From: Candidatus Thorarchaeota archaeon
GTDB taxonomy: Archaea; Asgardarchaeota; Thorarchaeia; Thorarchaeales; Thorarchaeaceae
Direction of reading: 5' to 3'
Assembly: GCA_020348985.1 (NCBI GenBank)
Contig: CP070761.1
Location: forward strand, 2,009,492 to 2,071,076
DNA length: 61,585 nt
Shown here: piece after piece, positions 4,757 through 57,566 of the stretch
How positions within the stretch are numbered: position 1 is the stretch's first letter
How the letters are laid out: every line of letters starts with the position of its first letter
Translations under genes and position numbers: made by a program
The notes under the pieces: model-generated
The model's database searches: none
What the model was told of the DNA's origin: nothing
Seen by the model: only the letters and a program-made list of their open reading frames with translations

Positions 4757-7081
4757 CTATGCGCTTCCCACTTCAGATCCATTGCGTCGCCTTGTGTAAA
4801 GAATGATTATCACGACTACGCCACCGGCAGCTGTAGCTAGTGCAACACCAAGCTCAAGGGGGAATCCAAGCGGAAGGGTTGTTGTCGTTGTGGTCGTTGT
4901 TGTAGTGGTTGACGTTGTTGTCGATGGTGTTGTAGTTGTTGTTGTCAGAGGAACTGTCGGCCACAGATTCTCAACTTCCTCAGGGGTCGGAATGTCTGGG
5001 AAGATGTTAATCGTCATTGGCGACTCTTGTTGCTCTTGAGATATGAGTAGAAGACGTGTGCCATTTGCCTGAACGTCAAGGGGAACTTCGAGAGTAGTCC
5101 CACTCGTGGCATATGATCCAAGAGTTTCATTCGTATCGATTGAATGGACATAGTAACTTCCTGTAGGCAAGCCGAATCGACCAATGTCTAGAGTGTAATT
5201 CAGAGACCGAGGCTCGTTGTAGAAGTTGGAGATACCAGCCAGAATCACTCCAGGCTCAATCTCTGCTTGTGTTACCAACATCTTCTCATATCCTTGCTGA
5301 GCTACTGGTGTCGTGAGGTTCAATCTGTTCTCTAGAAAAGCTCTCGTTACATTCCTGTGCAGGAATCGGGTCTGATTGTGTTCCGGCAAGAATGTATCAA
5401 CCACATCATTGAACATTGGATTGTGGTTCGTTCTAGAGGACCTCGGACCCCAATACAGTGTCCATCCTTCATCCGGATTTGATGAGTTTCTGTACATGAC
5501 AAGAGGATGGTAGTCTAGTTTTGTAAGACTGGAATCCTCCTCAACATGGTAGAAATCACCTATTGGTGTGTGGTCATGTGTAAGAGTATCGTTCCTCAAG
5601 TAGTGGATACTTGACTCTAGGCTATCATATTCGATTGAGAGATTCAGCATATTTGGTCTAGTCTCATTAAAGTAGAGATGACCGCCAATCTGCTCTTGAA
5701 TCACGCCCGTCTCCATGAGAAACTTCACCGACCTTGTTGCATTGGCATAGACATTCTTCTGTTCCCAGCCGAAACCTCCCAAGAGAACAAGATTCCCTCC
5801 AGACGCCACATAGTCATTCAGCTTCTGAACCACTTCTTCGTAGTAGGCTTCCTCGTTGGCGATTATGACTTCATACTGTGACAGGTTAACATACAGGTTC
5901 ATCAGGTTCACTTGACTAAGCACGTCGTATTCGTTGAACAGACCATACTCTGATGCGAATCCAGTTTGGTAGGATATGAGATAGTCACGCAAGACAAGAA
6001 TCTGCGACTTCGGCTTGAAGACTGGCATCTTCTCAAGCTCTGCATTCAATCGATTCATGTATAGAAACTGCTGCTTTCCTAGGACGTCTTCACGTCCCCA
6101 GTTCCACCCGTGCAAATAGTGCCACGTGAACCAGGTCAACGTGTCCACTCCCGAGAGATACGTCAGCCATGCGTTCCTTCGAAGATGCTCAAAACCCCCA
6201 TTCCATCCTTCGTTCTCTGGCCATGTTTCCTGACCCCAAGTTGTGAAGTGGTAGTCCTTTTCAGGGAAGGCGGTTTTGTAGGCCCGGATCCATTCGTACA
6301 TCCAGAATGGATTATCATATGCCATATAGTAGAACAGATTGTCTATGTACGCATCCGCCTTCAACTGACTGATGTCCATGCCTCCCGTCCAGACTGGGGG
6401 AGCTCCGGGATGCATGAAGAATGCTTGAAAAACCAAGACATCTGGCCACTTGGCCTTAAGATAGTCATAGATGTGGTTGAAGAGCCAGATCGTCTTTTCT
6501 CTCTGCCATTCCCAGAGCACAAACTCCTCGGTCTTGTTAATCGGTGTTTCCCACCTTAGCCAGAAGCCAGTCTCCGAGTTATATGTCGTGTTCAGCTTCT
6601 CGTACTTGTCTTGTTTGCTAAAAAAGGCAAGAGAACCTGCGGGTTCCTCGCTTGAGAGTGTCAGTGCCCAAATCCACTCAGGCTCAACGAAACTAAGATA
6701 CCAATCAATCTCATCGTCTAGAAGCTCAAGAAGTGTGAGGTTGTAGCAGAAATCTATCGCGGTCGTATTCCAGGCGATTTCTCCATTGAAAAAGGGGGCC
6801 CACCAATCGAGCTTCATGTTGACTCTAACGCCGCTTTCTGCAAGGTCTCTGATGACCTCGGCTTCCCATGGGTAGTGAAAGAAGTCAGGTGCTGCCGCAA
6901 AGTAGGTTGGGTTTGTTGGAAGAATACGAATCAGTGCGTTCTCCATTTCCAATGCTCCGCCAAACCCTGTCGGGATTGCACCGACTTGGGAGACCGGGGT
7001 CGCTGCTAGTAACAGCAGGGAGAGAAAGTAAGTTAGCCGCTTCTTCAATGGCAGAACCGCCCTCATTATGCGAATTGACAA
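4757..7081 (-). CDS. Secreted, C-terminally anchored protein; putative glycoside hydrolase (TIM barrel + GH42-trimerisation-like + beta-sandwich)
   Basis: Signal peptide; aromatic-rich domain with SEEP; QYEVII..KLNDYVASGGNLVLLG motif typical of the beta-galactosidase trimerisation domain; Thr linker; TM then RRR. Confidence 0.55.
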   Translation of the reverse strand: MSIRIMRAVLPLKKRLTYFLSLLLLAATPVSQVGAIPTGFGGALEMENALIRILPTNPTYFAAAPDFFHYPWEAEVIRDLAESGVRVNMKLDWWAPFFNGEIAWNTTAIDFCYNLTLLELLDDEIDWYLSFVEPEWIWALTLSSEEPAGSLAFFSKQDKYEKLNTTYNSETGFWLRWETPINKTEEFVLWEWQREKTIWLFNHIYDYLKAKWPDVLVFQAFFMHPGAPPVWTGGMDISQLKADAYIDNLFYYMAYDNPFWMYEWIRAYKTAFPEKDYHFTTWGQETWPENEGWNGGFEHLRRNAWLTYLSGVDTLTWFTWHYLHGWNWGREDVLGKQQFLYMNRLNAELEKMPVFKPKSQILVLRDYLISYQTGFASEYGLFNEYDVLSQVNLMNLYVNLSQYEVIIANEEAYYEEVVQKLNDYVASGGNLVLLGGFGWEQKNVYANATRSVKFLMETGVIQEQIGGHLYFNETRPNMLNLSIEYDSLESSIHYLRNDTLTHDHTPIGDFYHVEEDSSLTKLDYHPLVMYRNSSNPDEGWTLYWGPRSSRTNHNPMFNDVVDTFLPEHNQTRFLHRNVTRAFLENRLNLTTPVAQQGYEKMLVTQAEIEPGVILAGISNFYNEPRSLNYTLDIGRFGLPTGSYYVHSIDTNETLGSYATSGTTLEVPLDVQANGTRLLLISQEQQESPMTINIFPDIPTPEEVENLWPTVPLTTTTTTPSTTTSTTTTTTTTTTTLPLGFPLELGVALATAAGGVVVIIILYTRRRNGSEVGSA
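4878..4946 (-). repeat. Low-complexity ACN tract encoding a poly-Thr linker
   Basis: gttgttgtcgttgtggtc... translates as TTTTTTPSTTTSTTTTTTTTTTT. Confidence 0.85.
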
Positions 7082-26683: not shown

Positions 26684-26747
26684 GGTTATCGGAAAACATT
26701 TGCTTGATGACTATTTCACTCTTGCCTATCTTGGCCGTGTCAAGTCA

Positions 26748-27020
26748 CTAGACTGCCATCATTATGGCAGTTGCAATATCAGCTGGGTCTGCACCAATGA
26801 TTTGTGTCCCCGATTTTGAAAGAAAGTCAGCGATTACTGATTTGATAGAGCTACTCTCCAAGTAGACTCCCTTCAGCCGCTCTTCAAGATCGGATAGTGC
26901 ATCCTCAGGGTGGAGGAAGAAATCCCCCATTATGGTGACTTTCTCAATCTTGTAGCCGACAGTCTTGAGTCGTATCTTGAGAAGCTTTCCGCCCGGAACT
27001 TTGTATGTGCTCGATCCCAT
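26748..27020 (-). CDS. lplB: Lipoate-protein ligase C-terminal subunit
   Basis: KVPGGKLL..ITIxGDFFLHPE-type motif (VTIMGDFFLHPE); real start MGSSTYK at 27020, 4 nt after lplA. Confidence 0.88.
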   Translation of the reverse strand: MGSSTYKVPGGKLLKIRLKTVGYKIEKVTIMGDFFLHPEDALSDLEERLKGVYLESSSIKSVIADFLSKSGTQIIGADPADIATAIMMAV

Positions 27021-27024
27021 TCTC

Positions 27025-33317: not shown

Positions 33318-34973
33318 CTAGATCCCGTAAGTGTCTTGTCTACCGCCGCCTCCGCGTACGATTCCAGCAATGCTGTAGATTGCAGTCAGGCCAAACAGAG
33401 CACCAATTCCGAGAGTGATCTCTGGGAAGTTGGCCATGGCATCTGAAAGCAACTGCCCAGCGAAGGCAGTCGGCTCAGGCTCGACTGTGAATCCGTGATC
33501 CACTGTGTCCTTGTCATAGGTTGTAGCATCATAGGTATAGTTCACTTTCGCTCCTGGGAAGAGGTAGGCTCCCTCATTAGCGAATGTGACTGTATACTGC
33601 ATCGATTCCGATTCTCCTGGAAGCAGTGTAGACACAGTTGTACTTGTAGTTCCTGTTACGGATGCAGAGGAATACAACAACTGGAACTCTACATCACTGA
33701 CCTCAACATCTGTGATTGAAACTCCACCATTATTGGTCACTGTAACAGTAACTACGATCGATCCCCCTACAGTTGCAGTTCCTGGAGCGAATGTCCTTTC
33801 TATGGAAACCTCAGGTGGAAACTCGTGGTCATCGAAGAAAATCTCGTAGTCGCTTTGAACGCCGAGTCCACTTGCATTCCAGAAGACTAGCGAACTTCCA
33901 GGCTCATGGTATGACAGATTGGCAACGCTTGGTGAGTATCCAGTGATATTCACTTCAACTGGCATGTTGGAGACCACATAGGAGTGCTCACTCATTGGAG
34001 TTATGGAACCTGTGGCACCGATGAGCTCAGCGAGGCTTAGACTTGTGTCATCAATCGTCAGAACCTGATCATCGATGTATCCGACAGCCGCAATGGCAAG
34101 AGGACCATCGAGCATAGGAAACTGAGCAACAGCGAAGTCAGAAAGCGGAGTTGGTGGTTCCTCTTCTCCGCCACCAAACAAGTCATTGAAGATACCCATG
34201 TCAGGAATGGCGAGGAGCCCTGCGGCAGACCCTCGGTTATCTGTGAATTTCGTCGAATCCATGGACCCCAGAATTCCAGATGTGTCAAGGCCATCCATAA
34301 TGGCAGTCAAGGTGTCCGCGAACTCGTTTACAATATTGTAGACGTAGATGTCCAACGAATCAAAAGGAAGTTGAACATCCACGTCGGGAGGGATGATTGA
34401 CTCATCAATCCTGAGCGTGAAGAGTTCTGTAAAACTCAGACCAAACAAGCTGTCGAGTCGGCCTAGTACTTGGCTCATTCTCGAGTTTGCGGTAGCCGCG
34501 TCAAGATTGAGATATGCGCTAAAGAGCAGGCCGAAGTCTGTGCCAATCATCTGAAGGATTTGGGATGGGTCAGGCAGACCTCCTTCAAACTGTTGGGCTG
34601 TTATTTGACCGTCGGTTAACTTCGAAGAGGCATTCAGGAATTGCCCCCCAATAAGATTCAGGGCGTATTCGAGCAGTTCGCCCTGCGTAGCAATGAGAGC
34701 GAATGCCATATTGCCGTCAAACATTTCATCAGACAAACCCAGGTCCTCTGATGGCAGACCCAGTTGTCCGTAGATGACAGCTGGTGCTCCCTCCGAATCT
34801 ATGTTCGTCAGAAGAAGCTCCGCGCCTGTATCAAGTAGCTCGGTGAAGAACTGACCAATGTCGTCTACTTGGTCGGGCTCCACCTGAATGCTGTCAAAAG
34901 CTGCAGCTGCCGGACTGGCTATGAGAATAGCCATCATCACAATGACAAATGCGTGCGTGATTCTTATCTTCAT
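33318..34973 (-). CDS. Acidic secreted surface protein with CARDB/DUF11-like Ig domain and C-terminal TM
   Basis: Signal peptide; VTVTVTNNG..ITDVEVSD...LLPGES...YTV; TM then short tail. Confidence 0.75.
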   Translation of the reverse strand: MKIRITHAFVIVMMAILIASPAAAAFDSIQVEPDQVDDIGQFFTELLDTGAELLLTNIDSEGAPAVIYGQLGLPSEDLGLSDEMFDGNMAFALIATQGELLEYALNLIGGQFLNASSKLTDGQITAQQFEGGLPDPSQILQMIGTDFGLLFSAYLNLDAATANSRMSQVLGRLDSLFGLSFTELFTLRIDESIIPPDVDVQLPFDSLDIYVYNIVNEFADTLTAIMDGLDTSGILGSMDSTKFTDNRGSAAGLLAIPDMGIFNDLFGGGEEEPPTPLSDFAVAQFPMLDGPLAIAAVGYIDDQVLTIDDTSLSLAELIGATGSITPMSEHSYVVSNMPVEVNITGYSPSVANLSYHEPGSSLVFWNASGLGVQSDYEIFFDDHEFPPEVSIERTFAPGTATVGGSIVVTVTVTNNGGVSITDVEVSDVEFQLLYSSASVTGTTSTTVSTLLPGESESMQYTVTFANEGAYLFPGAKVNYTYDATTYDKDTVDHGFTVEPEPTAFAGQLLSDAMANFPEITLGIGALFGLTAIYSIAGIVRGGGGRQDTYGI

Positions 34974-34980
34974 TTTTGAT

Positions 34981-35559
34981 TCACTCCTTTGGGCGAACGA
35001 CGGCGCCGATTATCCCACCAACTACGATCGCAATAACAGGTGCAAATACAAACACCAGAAACGGTGCTATGATGGAAAACAGGTTCAAACTTGCACCTCC
35101 GCCTCCAGCGAACCCGCCCATGACTGATAGCAGTGTGCTGAGCAAATCTGATACAAGCGGTATTGATAGAAGATCGGCCAGCGAATATCCAGGTGGAACC
35201 GGTGGCAGTGCAAGTGGATTGAATCCGCCCATCATCAGCATATACACTGAGAATACAGTGAGTACTAGGCAAGATATCCATGCCATGAACCCTACAACAA
35301 ATGCACCCTTCTTGGTACCTGCAATCACCCCGCCAATGAAACCTGCACCCACCCAGATTCCAAGCGACAGAAAGTTCGTCAATGGATTGAGGAGTAGGAG
35401 GCTTGCCATGACTGCTAGTGGTCGCACATAGTTGCCGAAGTAGGGCGAGTATAGTGCGATCAGAGTATTCCAGCCCTCGGGCAGCAGTATCCATCCCAGG
35501 CCGACGACAAGACCAAAGGCTGCTAAGTATCCGAAGAATTTCGAGCCAAAACCCATCAT
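34981..35559 (-). CDS. Membrane protein (4-5 TM)
   Basis: Hydrophobic Gly-rich helices; ends 7 nt before the surface-protein gene. Confidence 0.75.
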   Translation of the reverse strand: MMGFGSKFFGYLAAFGLVVGLGWILLPEGWNTLIALYSPYFGNYVRPLAVMASLLLLNPLTNFLSLGIWVGAGFIGGVIAGTKKGAFVVGFMAWISCLVLTVFSVYMLMMGGFNPLALPPVPPGYSLADLLSIPLVSDLLSTLLSVMGGFAGGGGASLNLFSIIAPFLVFVFAPVIAIVVGGIIGAVVRPKE

Positions 35560-48252: not shown

Positions 48253-48912
48253 TTGCAGGAGCGGGATTTGCCCAGTCTGTTGGTCTTTATCATAACAGCT
48301 GGGCTTCCCGCCACTCTACTTCTTTCAGTTGTAGGGCTAGGAATGGGTTTTCTTATCGGAGTAGCTTTAGCACTCATCAGAGTATATGCTGAGGAAGATA
48401 TCTCACTCTTGGCTCAGGCTTACGAGAATCTCTTTAGAGGAGTTCCTGTTCTGGTCCTGATGCTACTCTTTCTTGTCAGTACAGGATGGCCTGCGTTCTT
48501 TTCGGCTGGTCTTGCACTGGGACTCCGTAGTGGGGCATACCAGTCTCAGATTGTACGTGGGGCTATACTGTCCGTCAGTGAGAGTCAGATGATTGCTGCA
48601 TATTCTATTGGCATGAATCGGATGCAAACAGCAAGGCACATTGTCCTACCACAAGCGTTTCGACTTGCACTACCAGGGTGGTCCAATGAATATGCAGTTG
48701 TGACAAAAGACACTGCATGGGCCGGGGCAATCGGAGTTCTCGACATGGTCAAGGCCTCGGACTATCTGGTGTTCGAGGATCCAGTATTATTCTTACCTGC
48801 CATTCTGGCCATCACTCTGATATACTTCGTATTGACATATCCAATAACGAGGTATGCAGGTGAAGTGATGTCTAAGAGGCTGAGAAGTCTTGGATTAGGA
48901 GGCGATTACTAA
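48253..48912 (+). CDS. Polar amino-acid ABC permease
   Basis: FRGVPVLV, SGAYQSQIVRG, IVLPQAFR. Confidence 0.92.
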   Translation: MQERDLPSLLVFIITAGLPATLLLSVVGLGMGFLIGVALALIRVYAEEDISLLAQAYENLFRGVPVLVLMLLFLVSTGWPAFFSAGLALGLRSGAYQSQIVRGAILSVSESQMIAAYSIGMNRMQTARHIVLPQAFRLALPGWSNEYAVVTKDTAWAGAIGVLDMVKASDYLVFEDPVLFLPAILAITLIYFVLTYPITRYAGEVMSKRLRSLGLGGDY

Positions 48913-53810: not shown

Positions 53811-53885
53811 GGTGTGTCAACTATCGTTTTGGGCCAACGAAGTTACTTAATAGTCAAACGTATGGGACATCTAGAGCGACAAAGC

Positions 53886-54500: not shown

Positions 54501-54555
54501 AGCTCTAGCACTTGCTCTCAGTCGCAGACAGGCTTCTTAACTTTGACTCTTCGCG

Positions 54556-56406
54556 TCACACAATCTCATTCAGCCATTCGAGGACCTTTGTGTAGGCTTC
54601 TACGCGGTTCTTCCTTTTGGCCAAACCATGTCCTTCGTCGGCGAATCGCAAAAGGCGGACTGGAATCCCCTTTTCCTTGAGCTTCTCGTAGATCTGAACG
54701 GATTCAGATAGCGGCACTCGTTCGTCATTGTCACCTTGAATGATGAAGAGCGGAGCTGAGATCCTGTCCACTTTGTGAATTGGGCTTATTCGCATTAGAG
54801 TGTCAAAAGCGTTTTCGAGACTTCCATATTCAACCTCACGAAGACCCCGGCGCCATGAAGCTGTGTTCTGAAGGAACGTAACGAAATTCGATATCCCAAC
54901 TATGTCGACTCCCGCTTTCCACAGGTCCGGATGTTCAGTCATGGCTGATAGGACCGAGAATCCTCCATAACTTACTCCATAAATGACTAGCCGGTCGCCG
55001 TCGATTTCCGTATCGTTCTGTTTGATGTGAAAGGCCAACTCACGAATGTCCATTATCGAGTCCAGTCTCTTCTCAACATTGTCAAGGTCAAGATAGGTTC
55101 TACCGTATCCGGTACTTCCACGGATGTTTGGTGCTACGACAGCATAACCCGCAGACACAAAGAACTGTATAACGGGATTGAAGTCGGGACGAATCTGCGA
55201 CTCTGGCCCACCGTGAATCATGAAGATGGCAGGCCACCCTTTGGAAGGTTGACTTCCTGTAGGCAAGTATCTGAAGTAGGGCACTCTCAGATCGTCGAAG
55301 CTCTTGAAGTCCCAGAGAGTAGCGTCGGAAAAATCTGCTGGATCTAACCCAGCAATGCTAACTTCGGTGGCTTTCCAGCTAATGCCTTCTGCCAGGTCCA
55401 AGATCCATATATTCGATGGGCCAGTTGCGGATGCCAGCGTTATTGCTAGCTGCTTCTCATTCTCGGACAAGTCCATGCTTTTTGAGAATGACCTCGAGTC
55501 ACCTATCGTGATTACGCCTTTCATAGGCAAGTCCAGTTCTCTGAAACCGTCAACACCCGAGGGCTTGAACTCACCCATACACAAGGAGCTGTACCCTTCT
55601 TCATTGAAAACAACAAACGTCTTGGCGCTGTCATTGATGTGGGTTGACATGCTAAACTCAAGACCCATCATCGGGTACTCTAGCGGCGAATACTCACATG
55701 CGAGAGAAAGCACTCCCAGTCCTTTTGTATCTGAATTCAGATCAGAAGCAACCAAGAGGTGTTCGTTGTCCAAGAATCTCAAAGCGGACCATCTGCATGT
55801 TCGAGAGGACTTCAACTCATTTGTAAGCTCAATGGTATTCCCCGTCTCTGGTTCCAGAAGAGCCAACTCTTGATGGTTATTGCCGAAGAAGTGCTGGAGG
55901 ACCAGCTTCGAATCATCCGGTGAGACTGCACTGACTGCAGTAAGACTCCCACTCGGACGATAGATCAACTCTGGCTCGTGATCTGAAAGAGGAATCCTCC
56001 AGCGATAGAGGTCTAGTCTAGCTTTATCCTCAATGTTTGCCATGTAGTATAGGCCGTATTCTGTGGCGAGGTTGATTCTGTGTTTTGCATCCATATCCTG
56101 TGTCAACCAGGTTAGCTCACCGTCCATTCCTATGCTGCCGAGCTGGAAGTTCTCGTTACCTCCACGGTCTCTTGTAAACACAATTGATTCATCGGATAGG
56201 AATCGAGGGTCTGTGCATCTGTCCTCCTCAAATGTGACAATTGTGGGCTCAGCTACAATGTTCATTTCCACGGTGGTCTTATGAATCTGAAAAGATCCGG
56301 GAGCGTTTGCGACATATACAATTGAACTGTTACGTGGATGCCAAGACGGACCTCCTGCGGTCTCAATTTCGAGATAGCTTTCAACACGATCTGGTTTTGG
56401 CTTCAT
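54556..56406 (-). CDS. S9 family peptidase (prolyl oligo-/acylaminoacyl peptidase)
   Basis: N-terminal propeller; HGGPE, RGSTGYG, GVSYGG, QGDNDERV, DEGHG; start MKPKP. Confidence 0.93.
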   Translation of the reverse strand: MKPKPDRVESYLEIETAGGPSWHPRNSSIVYVANAPGSFQIHKTTVEMNIVAEPTIVTFEEDRCTDPRFLSDESIVFTRDRGGNENFQLGSIGMDGELTWLTQDMDAKHRINLATEYGLYYMANIEDKARLDLYRWRIPLSDHEPELIYRPSGSLTAVSAVSPDDSKLVLQHFFGNNHQELALLEPETGNTIELTNELKSSRTCRWSALRFLDNEHLLVASDLNSDTKGLGVLSLACEYSPLEYPMMGLEFSMSTHINDSAKTFVVFNEEGYSSLCMGEFKPSGVDGFRELDLPMKGVITIGDSRSFSKSMDLSENEKQLAITLASATGPSNIWILDLAEGISWKATEVSIAGLDPADFSDATLWDFKSFDDLRVPYFRYLPTGSQPSKGWPAIFMIHGGPESQIRPDFNPVIQFFVSAGYAVVAPNIRGSTGYGRTYLDLDNVEKRLDSIMDIRELAFHIKQNDTEIDGDRLVIYGVSYGGFSVLSAMTEHPDLWKAGVDIVGISNFVTFLQNTASWRRGLREVEYGSLENAFDTLMRISPIHKVDRISAPLFIIQGDNDERVPLSESVQIYEKLKEKGIPVRLLRFADEGHGLAKRKNRVEAYTKVLEWLNEIV

Positions 56407-56425
56407 GAGATAGCCTCGAAGTGTG

Positions 56426-56686
56426 TGCACAATGCGTACCTGATTTCGCATTGCGCAGATGGGTATCCCTTAATTAGGTACCTACCCCATCCCTTCAACG
56501 AGACATTTGGTCTTTCCCACCCCAATGAAAGAGCAAATACCTCCTTCTCTCGGTCGTGGTGTGGAACCTTTCCATGCCGCGGCCGTACAATGTCTTGTGA
56601 CTTCATTGTTTGACGATTTGATTCCGCTATTCCATCATAGCGTTGAAACAACGGCAAAGCATTTGTGCTCGGTAGAGTCTGCACAA
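56426..56686. ncRNA. Candidate structured RNA or regulatory leader (unassigned family)
   Basis: Seven or more adjacent inverted repeats, including a 16-bp stem with four G.U pairs (56551-56585). Confidence 0.4.
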
Positions 56687-56708
56687 TCGTGTACAAGGTG
56701 AGCTACCT

Positions 56709-57566
56709 GTGAAACTCCCTGCAATAGTTGTTCATGGCGGCGCTGGCAGCTGGAAGGATGATAGAATTCCAATAGGCCTTGCTGAAGTAGAGAATGCGGC
56801 CAAGGTGGGATTCAGGATTCTAGAGACCGGTGGATCATGCCTTGACGCTGCCGAGGCTTGCACATTGTACATGGAGTCCTGTGGAAAGCTAAACGCAGGT
56901 CTTGGAGCAAGACCTAACTCGGATGGAGAGAAGGAGCTAGATGCTATCATCATCGACGGATTTGAACTGAAGACTGGAGCAGTCATGGCTGTGAAGGGAA
57001 TCCAGAATCCCACGTCTCTGGCAAGATACGTCATGGAAGAGACCGAGTACGTGATGTTCGCAGGCGAAGGTGCTCGCCGGCTGTATGATAGAATGATGTC
57101 GGAGGGTTATCGAAAAGAGGCTGAGCACGGAGCTATTCAGATGCCATTACTGGAAGAAGGTGGGGATACTGTCGGATGCATTGCGGTAGATGTCGGCGGC
57201 CGAATAGCTGCAACTTCTTCGACAGGAGGAATTTCGGAGAAACTCCCAGGACGTGTGGGAGATTCACCGGTTTTTGGAGCGGGTGCCTACGCTAACAAGG
57301 TCTGCGGGGCCACAGCCACTGGATACGGTGAGCACATCGTTCGAGTTGTGATGTGCAGAATGGCAGTTCAGTACTACGAGAATGGAGCAAGCATTCAGAA
57401 GGCATCCGATATGGCAATTGAATTGCTTGAACGCGATACTGGCAGCGAAGCGGGAATAGTGATGGCTAGTGCAAATGGAGATTTTGGTAAGTCAACCAAT
57501 GCCAAAGCAATGCCAACAGTGGCAATCCGAGAGAACATTGATTCCATTGAACGCTTCACAAGATAG
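56709..57566 (+). CDS. Isoaspartyl peptidase / L-asparaginase (Ntn hydrolase T2)
   Basis: VHGGAG, NAGLG, DTVG autocleavage site, TSSTGG, GRVGDSP, ATGYGE. Confidence 0.94.
   Translation: MKLPAIVVHGGAGSWKDDRIPIGLAEVENAAKVGFRILETGGSCLDAAEACTLYMESCGKLNAGLGARPNSDGEKELDAIIIDGFELKTGAVMAVKGIQNPTSLARYVMEETEYVMFAGEGARRLYDRMMSEGYRKEAEHGAIQMPLLEEGGDTVGCIAVDVGGRIAATSSTGGISEKLPGRVGDSPVFGAGAYANKVCGATATGYGEHIVRVVMCRMAVQYYENGASIQKASDMAIELLERDTGSEAGIVMASANGDFGKSTNAKAMPTVAIRENIDSIERFTR

Follow-up and report, generated by a model that had tools for sequence, protein, structure and literature searches.

A constrained non-coding block beside an S9 peptidase operon in a Thorarchaeota genome: candidate promoter and operator-like DNA with a strand-biased fold

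The divergent S9 peptidase/asparaginase locus

The DNA analysed here (the window; 61,585 nucleotides) is part of a closed 3.16-Mb genome, and the relatives of its proteins are annotated as Candidatus Thorarchaeota / Promethearchaeota (Asgard archaea). Within it, a 302-nt spacer separates an S9 family peptidase gene from a divergently transcribed asparaginase gene. A preliminary description had proposed that this spacer, tiled by hairpins with mutually exclusive pairings, is a non-coding RNA or RNA switch. The features discussed below are as follows (positions are those of the window).

54556-56406, minus strand: S9 family peptidase gene (prolyl oligopeptidase / acylaminoacyl-peptidase type; Pfam Peptidase_S9, 4e-45; database call of 616 aa from 56406)
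56407-56708, unstranded: divergent spacer, 302 nt, single copy in the genome (GC 48.3%, ordinary among the genome's spacers)
56426-56436/56447-56457, better on the minus strand: hairpin H1, 11 bp with one A.C on the plus strand
56426-56457, minus strand: H1 as a candidate hairpin of the S9 mRNA 5' UTR, specific to this genome (56407-56464 has a minus-strand z of -2.24)
56461-56485, unstranded: palindromic box resembling BRE/TATA (core CTTAATTAGG), a candidate core promoter, shared or bidirectional
56465-56586, unstranded: conserved non-coding block linked to S9 (67% identity to the nearest relative, one 1-nt indel)
56498-56598, plus strand: predicted Y-shaped RNA domain (9-bp closing stem, H3, 14-nt single-stranded CU-rich linker, H4)
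56505-56516/56527-56538: hairpin H3, 11 of 12 positions paired, one G.G mismatch
56508-56536, unstranded: H3 inverted repeat TCTTTC / GAAAGA, arms invariant and loop variable in the relative
56551-56566/56570-56585 (56551-56585), plus strand: hairpin H4, 16 bp, its four non-Watson-Crick pairs all G.U on the plus strand
56587-56708, unstranded: asparaginase-proximal part with H5-H7 and the ribosome-binding site GGTGAGC (56697-56703), not conserved
56709-57566, plus strand: isoaspartyl peptidase / L-asparaginase gene (Asparaginase_2; Pfam 1.4e-66; homologues found)

The S9 gene is the first of a three-gene operon in which it is followed by the gene for a 204-aa protein, which is a secreted or membrane protein and not a DNA binder, and by the gene for an M3 oligopeptidase. 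While the longest S9 reading frame begins at 56451, orthologues and the 616-aa database call favour the ATG at 56406; the asparaginase start codon is the GTG at 56709, and the gene borders given previously are correct. On the 3' side of the asparaginase gene lie a thioredoxin gene and then a PAS/GAF histidine kinase gene, both on the opposite strand.

The spacer is unremarkable in length and GC content among the divergent gene pairs of this genome. Its description as the longest spacer in the window is roughly right, although a crude gene map has a 341-nt gap at 26684-27024. On this map, which is our own, is based on open reading frames and underlies the genome-wide statistics, spacers of at least 300 nt occur in about a quarter of the divergent pairs. 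A GC-content anomaly is ruled out by comparison with the mean of the genome's spacers (48.3% vs 46.2%).

Hairpins and folding energy

Direct reading of the sequence confirms every stem, G.U position and repeat that had been listed, together with its coordinates. Besides H1, H3 and H4 the spacer holds H2 (originally placed at 56458-56491), which contains TAGGTACCTA, and three perfect 6-bp stems, H5 (56587-56592/56604-56609), H6 (56625-56630/56637-56642) and H7 (56663-56668/56681-56686). The competing pairing is likewise present, CGAGACATT (56499-56507) being complementary to AATGTCTTG (56589-56597) with one G.U, and TGCACAAT occurs at both 56426 and 56680. By our own arithmetic about 0.66 repeated 8-mers are expected per 302 nt, which places the latter repeat at chance expectation.

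Folding energies were expressed as z-scores against dinucleotide shuffles. The whole spacer folds more stably than its shuffles on both strands, as had been anticipated (z -3.93 on the plus and -3.34 on the minus strand), and since 120 random 302-nt windows of the genome reach a minimum of -3.73 (mean -0.29, sd 1.29), it lies in roughly the top 1%. The signal is concentrated in the 106 nt from 56495 to 56600 (z -6.75 on the plus vs -1.25 on the minus strand; MFE -43.3 kcal/mol), with H4 by itself giving -7.1 vs -1.8. The adjacent region with H1 and H2 (56420-56495) prefers the minus strand (-2.9 plus, -4.1 minus), and the region with H5-H7 (56600-56708) folds at chance level (+0.37 plus, -1.3 minus). 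H5-H7 and the 8-mer repeat are accordingly treated here as chance features.

The restriction of the H4 irregularities to G.U had been taken to point to selection on RNA rather than on a DNA operator. Such an argument predicts asymmetry between the strands, and asymmetry is seen: H3, H4 and the closing stem prefer the plus strand, H1 the minus strand. The G.U-only deviation in H4 is real, but as evidence for RNA selection it is weak, with an estimated p of ~0.02-0.03 under a model in which a perfect palindrome decays by transitions.

The fold was calibrated against the rest of the genome with RNALfold, which assigns the domain an SVM z of -5.9, a value that ranks third among the plus-strand folds of the window. 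Across a 25% sample of the genome, folds with an SVM z of -5.9 or lower occur at 1.87 per 100 kb-strand (~120 per genome), and their density is equal in coding (1.86) and intergenic (1.90) DNA; an intergenic position adds nothing to the significance of a fold of this strength. A genome shuffled in 300-nt blocks with dinucleotides preserved yields 0.67 such folds per 100 kb-strand, thus about a third of them are expected from composition alone. Other plus-strand folds in the window with comparable SVM z lie at 48812-48864 (-6.2), 34320-34428 (-6.0) and 35413-35468 (-5.8). The strongest folds in the scanned quarter of the genome (G000:C1:640871-640929, 642104-642223 and 608025-608120; z about -7.0 to -7.5) include several clustered within 35 kb, and these may be structured RNAs or palindromic elements.

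In the plus-strand domain, the single-stranded linker (56541-56552) reads ACCUCCUUCUCU and resembles the anti-Shine-Dalgarno end of 16S rRNA. On the minus strand the same positions give a perfect GGAGGU ribosome-binding site, which no usable start codon follows. The nearest relative keeps only CTC and TCTC of this linker.

Comparison with known RNA families and mobile repeats

In agreement with the preliminary description, the spacer matches no known RNA family or MITE. Rfam 15 covariance models run over the whole window gave no matches at the gathering threshold, and at E<10 only noise (a Na+ riboswitch at 16 bits vs a threshold of 40.5, rli61 at 15 bits vs 50); the Rfam sRNA models left the spacer unmatched. 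ARAGORN reported neither tRNA nor tmRNA in the window. In the closed genome it found only 21 tRNA genes, a low count that possibly reflects intron-containing or split tRNAs, or the 13,100 N bases. As for guide sRNAs, reading of the sequence revealed no conserved C/D box pair on either strand, and H4 is a perfect stem with neither pseudouridylation pocket nor K-turn, the ACA that follows it here being missing in the relative. A literature search on Asgard non-coding RNA transcriptomics returned nothing relevant.

Searches for repeats (blastn, blastn-short, tblastx and a covariance model) found one copy of the spacer in the 3.16-Mb genome. The nested inverted repeats flanked by an 8-bp direct repeat recall MITEs and REP-like repeats; in contrast to these, the spacer is single copy in every collection searched and has no terminal inverted repeats. 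With the 8-mer repeat at chance, a MITE or interspersed palindromic repeat is ruled out. Phage, plasmid, viral-contig and metagenome collections, pattern scans included, held no match to the spacer. Among 40 relatives spacer DNA matched only at the coding edge of the asparaginase gene, and a covariance model built from the single sequence (R1) found no other copy in 85 family genomes or in the genome itself.

A conserved block that stays with S9

The two species representatives of the same genus have nothing in common with the spacer. One of them (G001) keeps the divergent S9/asparaginase pair across an AT-rich spacer of only 115 nt, and the other (G002) has a different neighbour gene. The nearest relative with alignable DNA carries an S9 protein that is 73% identical (loci L027-L029, mutually identical, from GCA_054388615.1 and two sister assemblies) and an asparaginase that is 79% identical (L016); the protein accession numbers of L027 and L016 lie close together, thus both loci probably belong to the same MAG. 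In this relative the operon of S9, 204-aa protein and M3 peptidase is intact and in the same order, its divergent neighbour being an FtsX-like permease gene across a 217-nt spacer, while the asparaginase, thioredoxin and kinase group sits elsewhere, 18 nt behind a different gene. The relative's arrangement is probably the derived one, since G001 shares the arrangement of the window. The rearrangement breakpoint falls just after H4 (L027:2784-3000 vs window 56586-56708), and the gene 18 nt ahead of the relocated asparaginase encodes the tail of a membrane protein (L016:1-193). Cluster members of the relative's proteins supplied no third distinct spacer sequence, and the comparison rests on two effective sequences.

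Between these two sequences a block of 122 nt (56465-56586) is 67% identical, while its flanks are near random in an alignment of the two S9-side spacers (28% over the 58 nt next to the S9 start, 35% beyond 56586). Shuffled controls reach an identity of at most 59% with gaps allowed. The S9 coding DNA is 70% identical to that of the relative and its 4-fold sites 39%, so that neutral sites are near saturation and the block is under constraint; purifying selection on part of the spacer, as had been supposed, is upheld. The block keeps its position and orientation beside S9 although the asparaginase gene has moved. From 56587 to 56708 there is no similarity to G001, G002 or L016 except in the ribosome-binding site.

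Conservation within the block is patchy. A box sequence, ATCCCnnAATTAGGTAC, is conserved at 15 of 17 positions (88%), the next 19 nt, which lead to a predicted plus-strand start (see below), at 42%, and the remaining 86 nt at 69%. Invariant islands are GTCTTTCCCA, GAAAG, GTGGAACC and TCCATGC. A gapped pattern of these islands met only coincidences inside coding sequence in 86 family genomes, and a covariance model of the two sequences (R2) gave no true matches in 40 genomes, its two weak ones lying away from any S9 gene.

These values bear on the possibility that the stems are a matter of chance or a by-product of mutation (template-switching quasi-palindromes, or coincidence), with the similarity to the relative reflecting slow decay. 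The rate of strong folds in shuffled DNA (0.67 against 1.87 per 100 kb-strand, with the same rate in coding DNA), the chance-level H5-H7 and TGCACAAT repeat, and the absence of the element from G001 and G002 all agree with such an origin. Slow decay would have to account for 67% identity over 122 nt beside 39% at 4-fold sites and random-level similarity in the adjacent 58 nt, a level that no shuffle attained, and we consider it improbable.

A small protein gene would also explain constraint, and two frames are open, a 97-aa frame on the minus strand (56403-56696), the TGA of which overlaps the S9 ATG (ATGA), and a 64-aa frame on the plus strand (56507-56701), which ends 8 nt before the asparaginase start. 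Searches of 1.84 billion representative proteins and of the 85 other family genomes found homologues of neither. The codon score of 0.046 falls short of the 5th percentile for real genes and corresponds to the 81st percentile for shadow ORFs, and stop codons and the 1-nt indel interrupt the frames in the relative. The mismatches in the block have no 3-nt periodicity. With no coding signal, translation of the block is scarcely credible.

Little of the fold is conserved in the relative

The preliminary description had looked to conservation and covariation in relatives as a check on the RNA, and on this point the structure largely fails. Within the alignable 96 nt this genome's fold has 30 pairs, of which 17 are invariant; of the 13 that vary, 2 are compensatory, 1 has become a wobble and 10 are broken. 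The covariation score of 0.167 is equalled or exceeded in 120 of 500 shuffles. H3 persists in the relative. Of H4, only the 5 bp at the top and the 5 bp at the base can form there, its middle being lost (5 of 7 substituted pairs broken; z -0.27), and the relative has no counterpart of H1 or H5-H7. For the closing stem, the 3' strand is on the far side of the rearrangement breakpoint and hence outside the alignable region. The extended H4 and H1 are peculiar to this genome, and the closing stem probably is as well.

What the two species do share is a strand preference. The block folds with a z of -6.6 on the plus vs -1.0 on the minus strand here and -2.2 vs -0.4 in the relative (the relative's whole spacer gives -0.3 and +1.1), and each wobble pair, here as in the relative, is G.U on the plus strand. 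A purely DNA-level element does not predict this bias or these wobbles.

The synteny contradicts a switchable leader between the two peptidase genes, as the block stays with S9 and the asparaginase gene moves away; the gene downstream on the plus strand is that of asparaginase in this genome and that of an FtsX-like permease in the relative, so that a constant association is missing. Nor is there support for an RNA switch. The alternative pairings are present, yet the predicted folding contains no expression platform in which the asparaginase ribosome-binding site is sequestered: when 56498-56730 is folded, the 5' domain is autonomous, the region of the ribosome-binding site is weakly paired and no U-tract is present. 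The spacer resembles the riboswitches and cis-regulatory leaders of Rfam in being a long structured region with competing helices upstream of a metabolic gene, and differs from riboswitches in that its downstream gene is not conserved and it has neither a predicted expression platform nor a conserved aptamer.

The fixed orientation of the block beside S9 would suit a minus-strand mRNA of the S9 operon with a long structured 5' leader, transcribed from a promoter beyond 56586. RNAalifold finds a minus-strand consensus hairpin of 13 bp (56464-56478 with 56492-56505) that contains two adjacent compensatory changes and minus-strand G.U pairs, and H1 also favours this strand. With 40 mismatched columns, a few apparent compensations are to be expected, and RNAalifold reports four 'compensatory' pairs on either strand, which does not discriminate between them. 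On the minus strand the block folds no better than chance here or in the relative (z -1.0 and -0.4), and neither species has a PWM promoter match upstream of the block in the S9 direction. We regard such a leader as very unlikely.

A palindromic BRE/TATA-like box and a predicted plus-strand start

A position weight matrix (PWM) for BRE/TATA elements was built from 20 tRNA promoters of this genome, which share the consensus CGAAATCTTTATAA located 35-65 nt (in most cases 42-54) upstream of the mature 5' end. In the spacer the PWM scores highest on the plus strand at 56461-56474, within the palindromic box (7.2 bits, against a training minimum of 7.3; background frequency 3.4e-4), and ~0.24 matches of this quality are expected in the scan. 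On the minus strand the box reads GTACCTAATTAAGG, which is like some tRNA promoters, yet scores only 1.9 bits. In the relative the PWM match is lost (TT to CC), though 15 of the 17 bases of ATCCCnnAATTAGGTAC are conserved. G001 has a match of 9.7 bits, a clear S9 promoter at the expected distance, which suggests that the basic role of the region is that of promoter DNA. The PWM scan found no good TATA nearer the asparaginase start, no U-tract terminator follows the plus-strand domain, and the positional promoter signal relative to start codons was uninformative.

The plus-strand match predicts, by estimate, a start at about 56498, which is the first paired base of the Y-shaped domain. The alternative that follows is a clade-specific structured RNA, transcribed divergently from S9 out of the palindromic BRE/TATA box, with its first ~100 nt folded as the Y-shaped domain and serving as a stable 5' leader, a leader-derived sRNA or a stand-alone sRNA. 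The succession of a highly conserved box, a poorly conserved 19 nt and a better conserved stretch from the predicted start is the layout that a promoter and its transcript would be expected to have. The plus strand is favoured in both species (z -6.75 vs -1.25 over the domain here), every wobble is G.U on that strand, one compensatory change from G-C to A-U is found at the base of H4, and a better-placed TATA for the asparaginase gene is wanting. This evidence is countered by the 10 of 13 varying pairs that break, by the loss of the middle of H4, by covariation equal to that of shuffles, by the promoter match that the relative has not kept, by the expectation that about a third of folds this strong arise by chance and by the lack of Rfam or covariance-model matches elsewhere. 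In addition, with no U-tract terminator the RNA would have to be a leader, and the gene that follows is not the same one in the two species. We keep this RNA as a live alternative because of its promoter geometry and of a strand bias seen in both species, but judge it doubtful.

Among archaea, transcriptome maps of Haloferax, Methanosarcina, Sulfolobus and Thermococcus contain sRNAs and 5' UTR-derived sRNAs. The domain is like them in being intergenic and ~100 nt long, with stable stem-loops, paired 5' and 3' ends and a narrow phylogenetic distribution, and in its single-stranded pyrimidine-rich linker (anti-Shine-Dalgarno-like CCUCCU). It is unlike them in that it is predicted from sequence and has no terminator or covariation, and in that most of its structure is not conserved in the only relative. 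A more specific proposal, of an undescribed ~100-nt plus-strand RNA restricted to a clade of Thorarchaeota, the exposed CCUCCU linker of which could pair with the ribosome-binding sites of target mRNAs, we hold to be unlikely. If true, a plus-strand RNA would supply a definite sRNA candidate for the Asgard archaea, one of the first, for which both start site and structure are predicted.

A candidate regulatory module of the S9 operon

Archaeal divergent (bidirectional) promoter regions combine BRE/TATA boxes with upstream or overlapping operator palindromes for dimeric regulators. The reading that we favour, tentatively, is that the spacer serves the S9 operon as a divergent promoter, with inverted repeats that resemble operators. 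Regulatory DNA of S9 is the most likely identity of the block because it stays with S9, because its inverted repeats have invariant arms and because the pairings of the RNA fold are not kept. In an operator comparison the arms of H3 and the top of H4 are invariant and their spacing is unchanged, while the loops differ in the relative.

The functional core would be a DNA module of ~120 bp (56465-56586) belonging to the operon of S9, the 204-aa protein and the M3 peptidase. Its first part would be the palindromic BRE/TATA-like box, from which the operon is presumably transcribed. The second, located upstream of the box relative to S9, would consist of the inverted repeats of H3 (TCTTTC-N10-GAAAGA) and of the top of H4 (TGGAA-N3-TTCCA), putative sites at which a dimeric transcription regulator may bind. 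The hairpins of this genome would then be largely lineage-specific extensions of the inverted repeats, through lengthening of H4 to 16 bp and addition of the closing stem, with H5-H7 probably representing chance-level stems and H1 a genome-specific hairpin in the S9 5' UTR.

Like archaeal divergent promoters, the spacer lies between divergent genes, has a BRE/TATA-like box near the consensus of the genome's tRNA promoters and carries inverted repeats with invariant arms and variable spacers, tied to one operon across a rearrangement. Several observations argue against a promoter and operator. We found no cognate DNA-binding protein for the inverted repeats, the 204-aa protein of the operon not being a DNA binder, and the motifs of the block do not recur at other promoters of the genome, hence no regulon is visible. 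At about 86 bp, the conserved stretch upstream of the TATA-like box is longer than is usual for archaeal operators, and in this the block departs from known divergent promoters, as it does in its consistent plus-strand folding bias, which DNA sites do not require. The PWM match, moreover, is on the plus strand, its predicted start coincides with the base at which pairing of the domain begins, and the relative has not kept it.

Since non-coding regulation has hardly been explored in Asgard archaea, a conserved non-coding element with a testable role has some, here modest, value. What is gained is a constrained block of 122 bp upstream of a peptidase operon, along with the genome's own BRE/TATA consensus. 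The locus also illustrates how poorly a striking z-score for folding in a single genome predicts a conserved RNA.

Within the same operon, the intercistronic gaps between the S9, 204-aa and M3 genes (54501-54555 and 53811-53885) are 84% (46/55) and 69% identical to their counterparts in the nearest relative (L027:4852-4906 and 5522-5598). The former is more conserved than the S9 coding DNA (70%; 39% at 4-fold sites), and both gaps may hold conserved intercistronic signals or processing sites.
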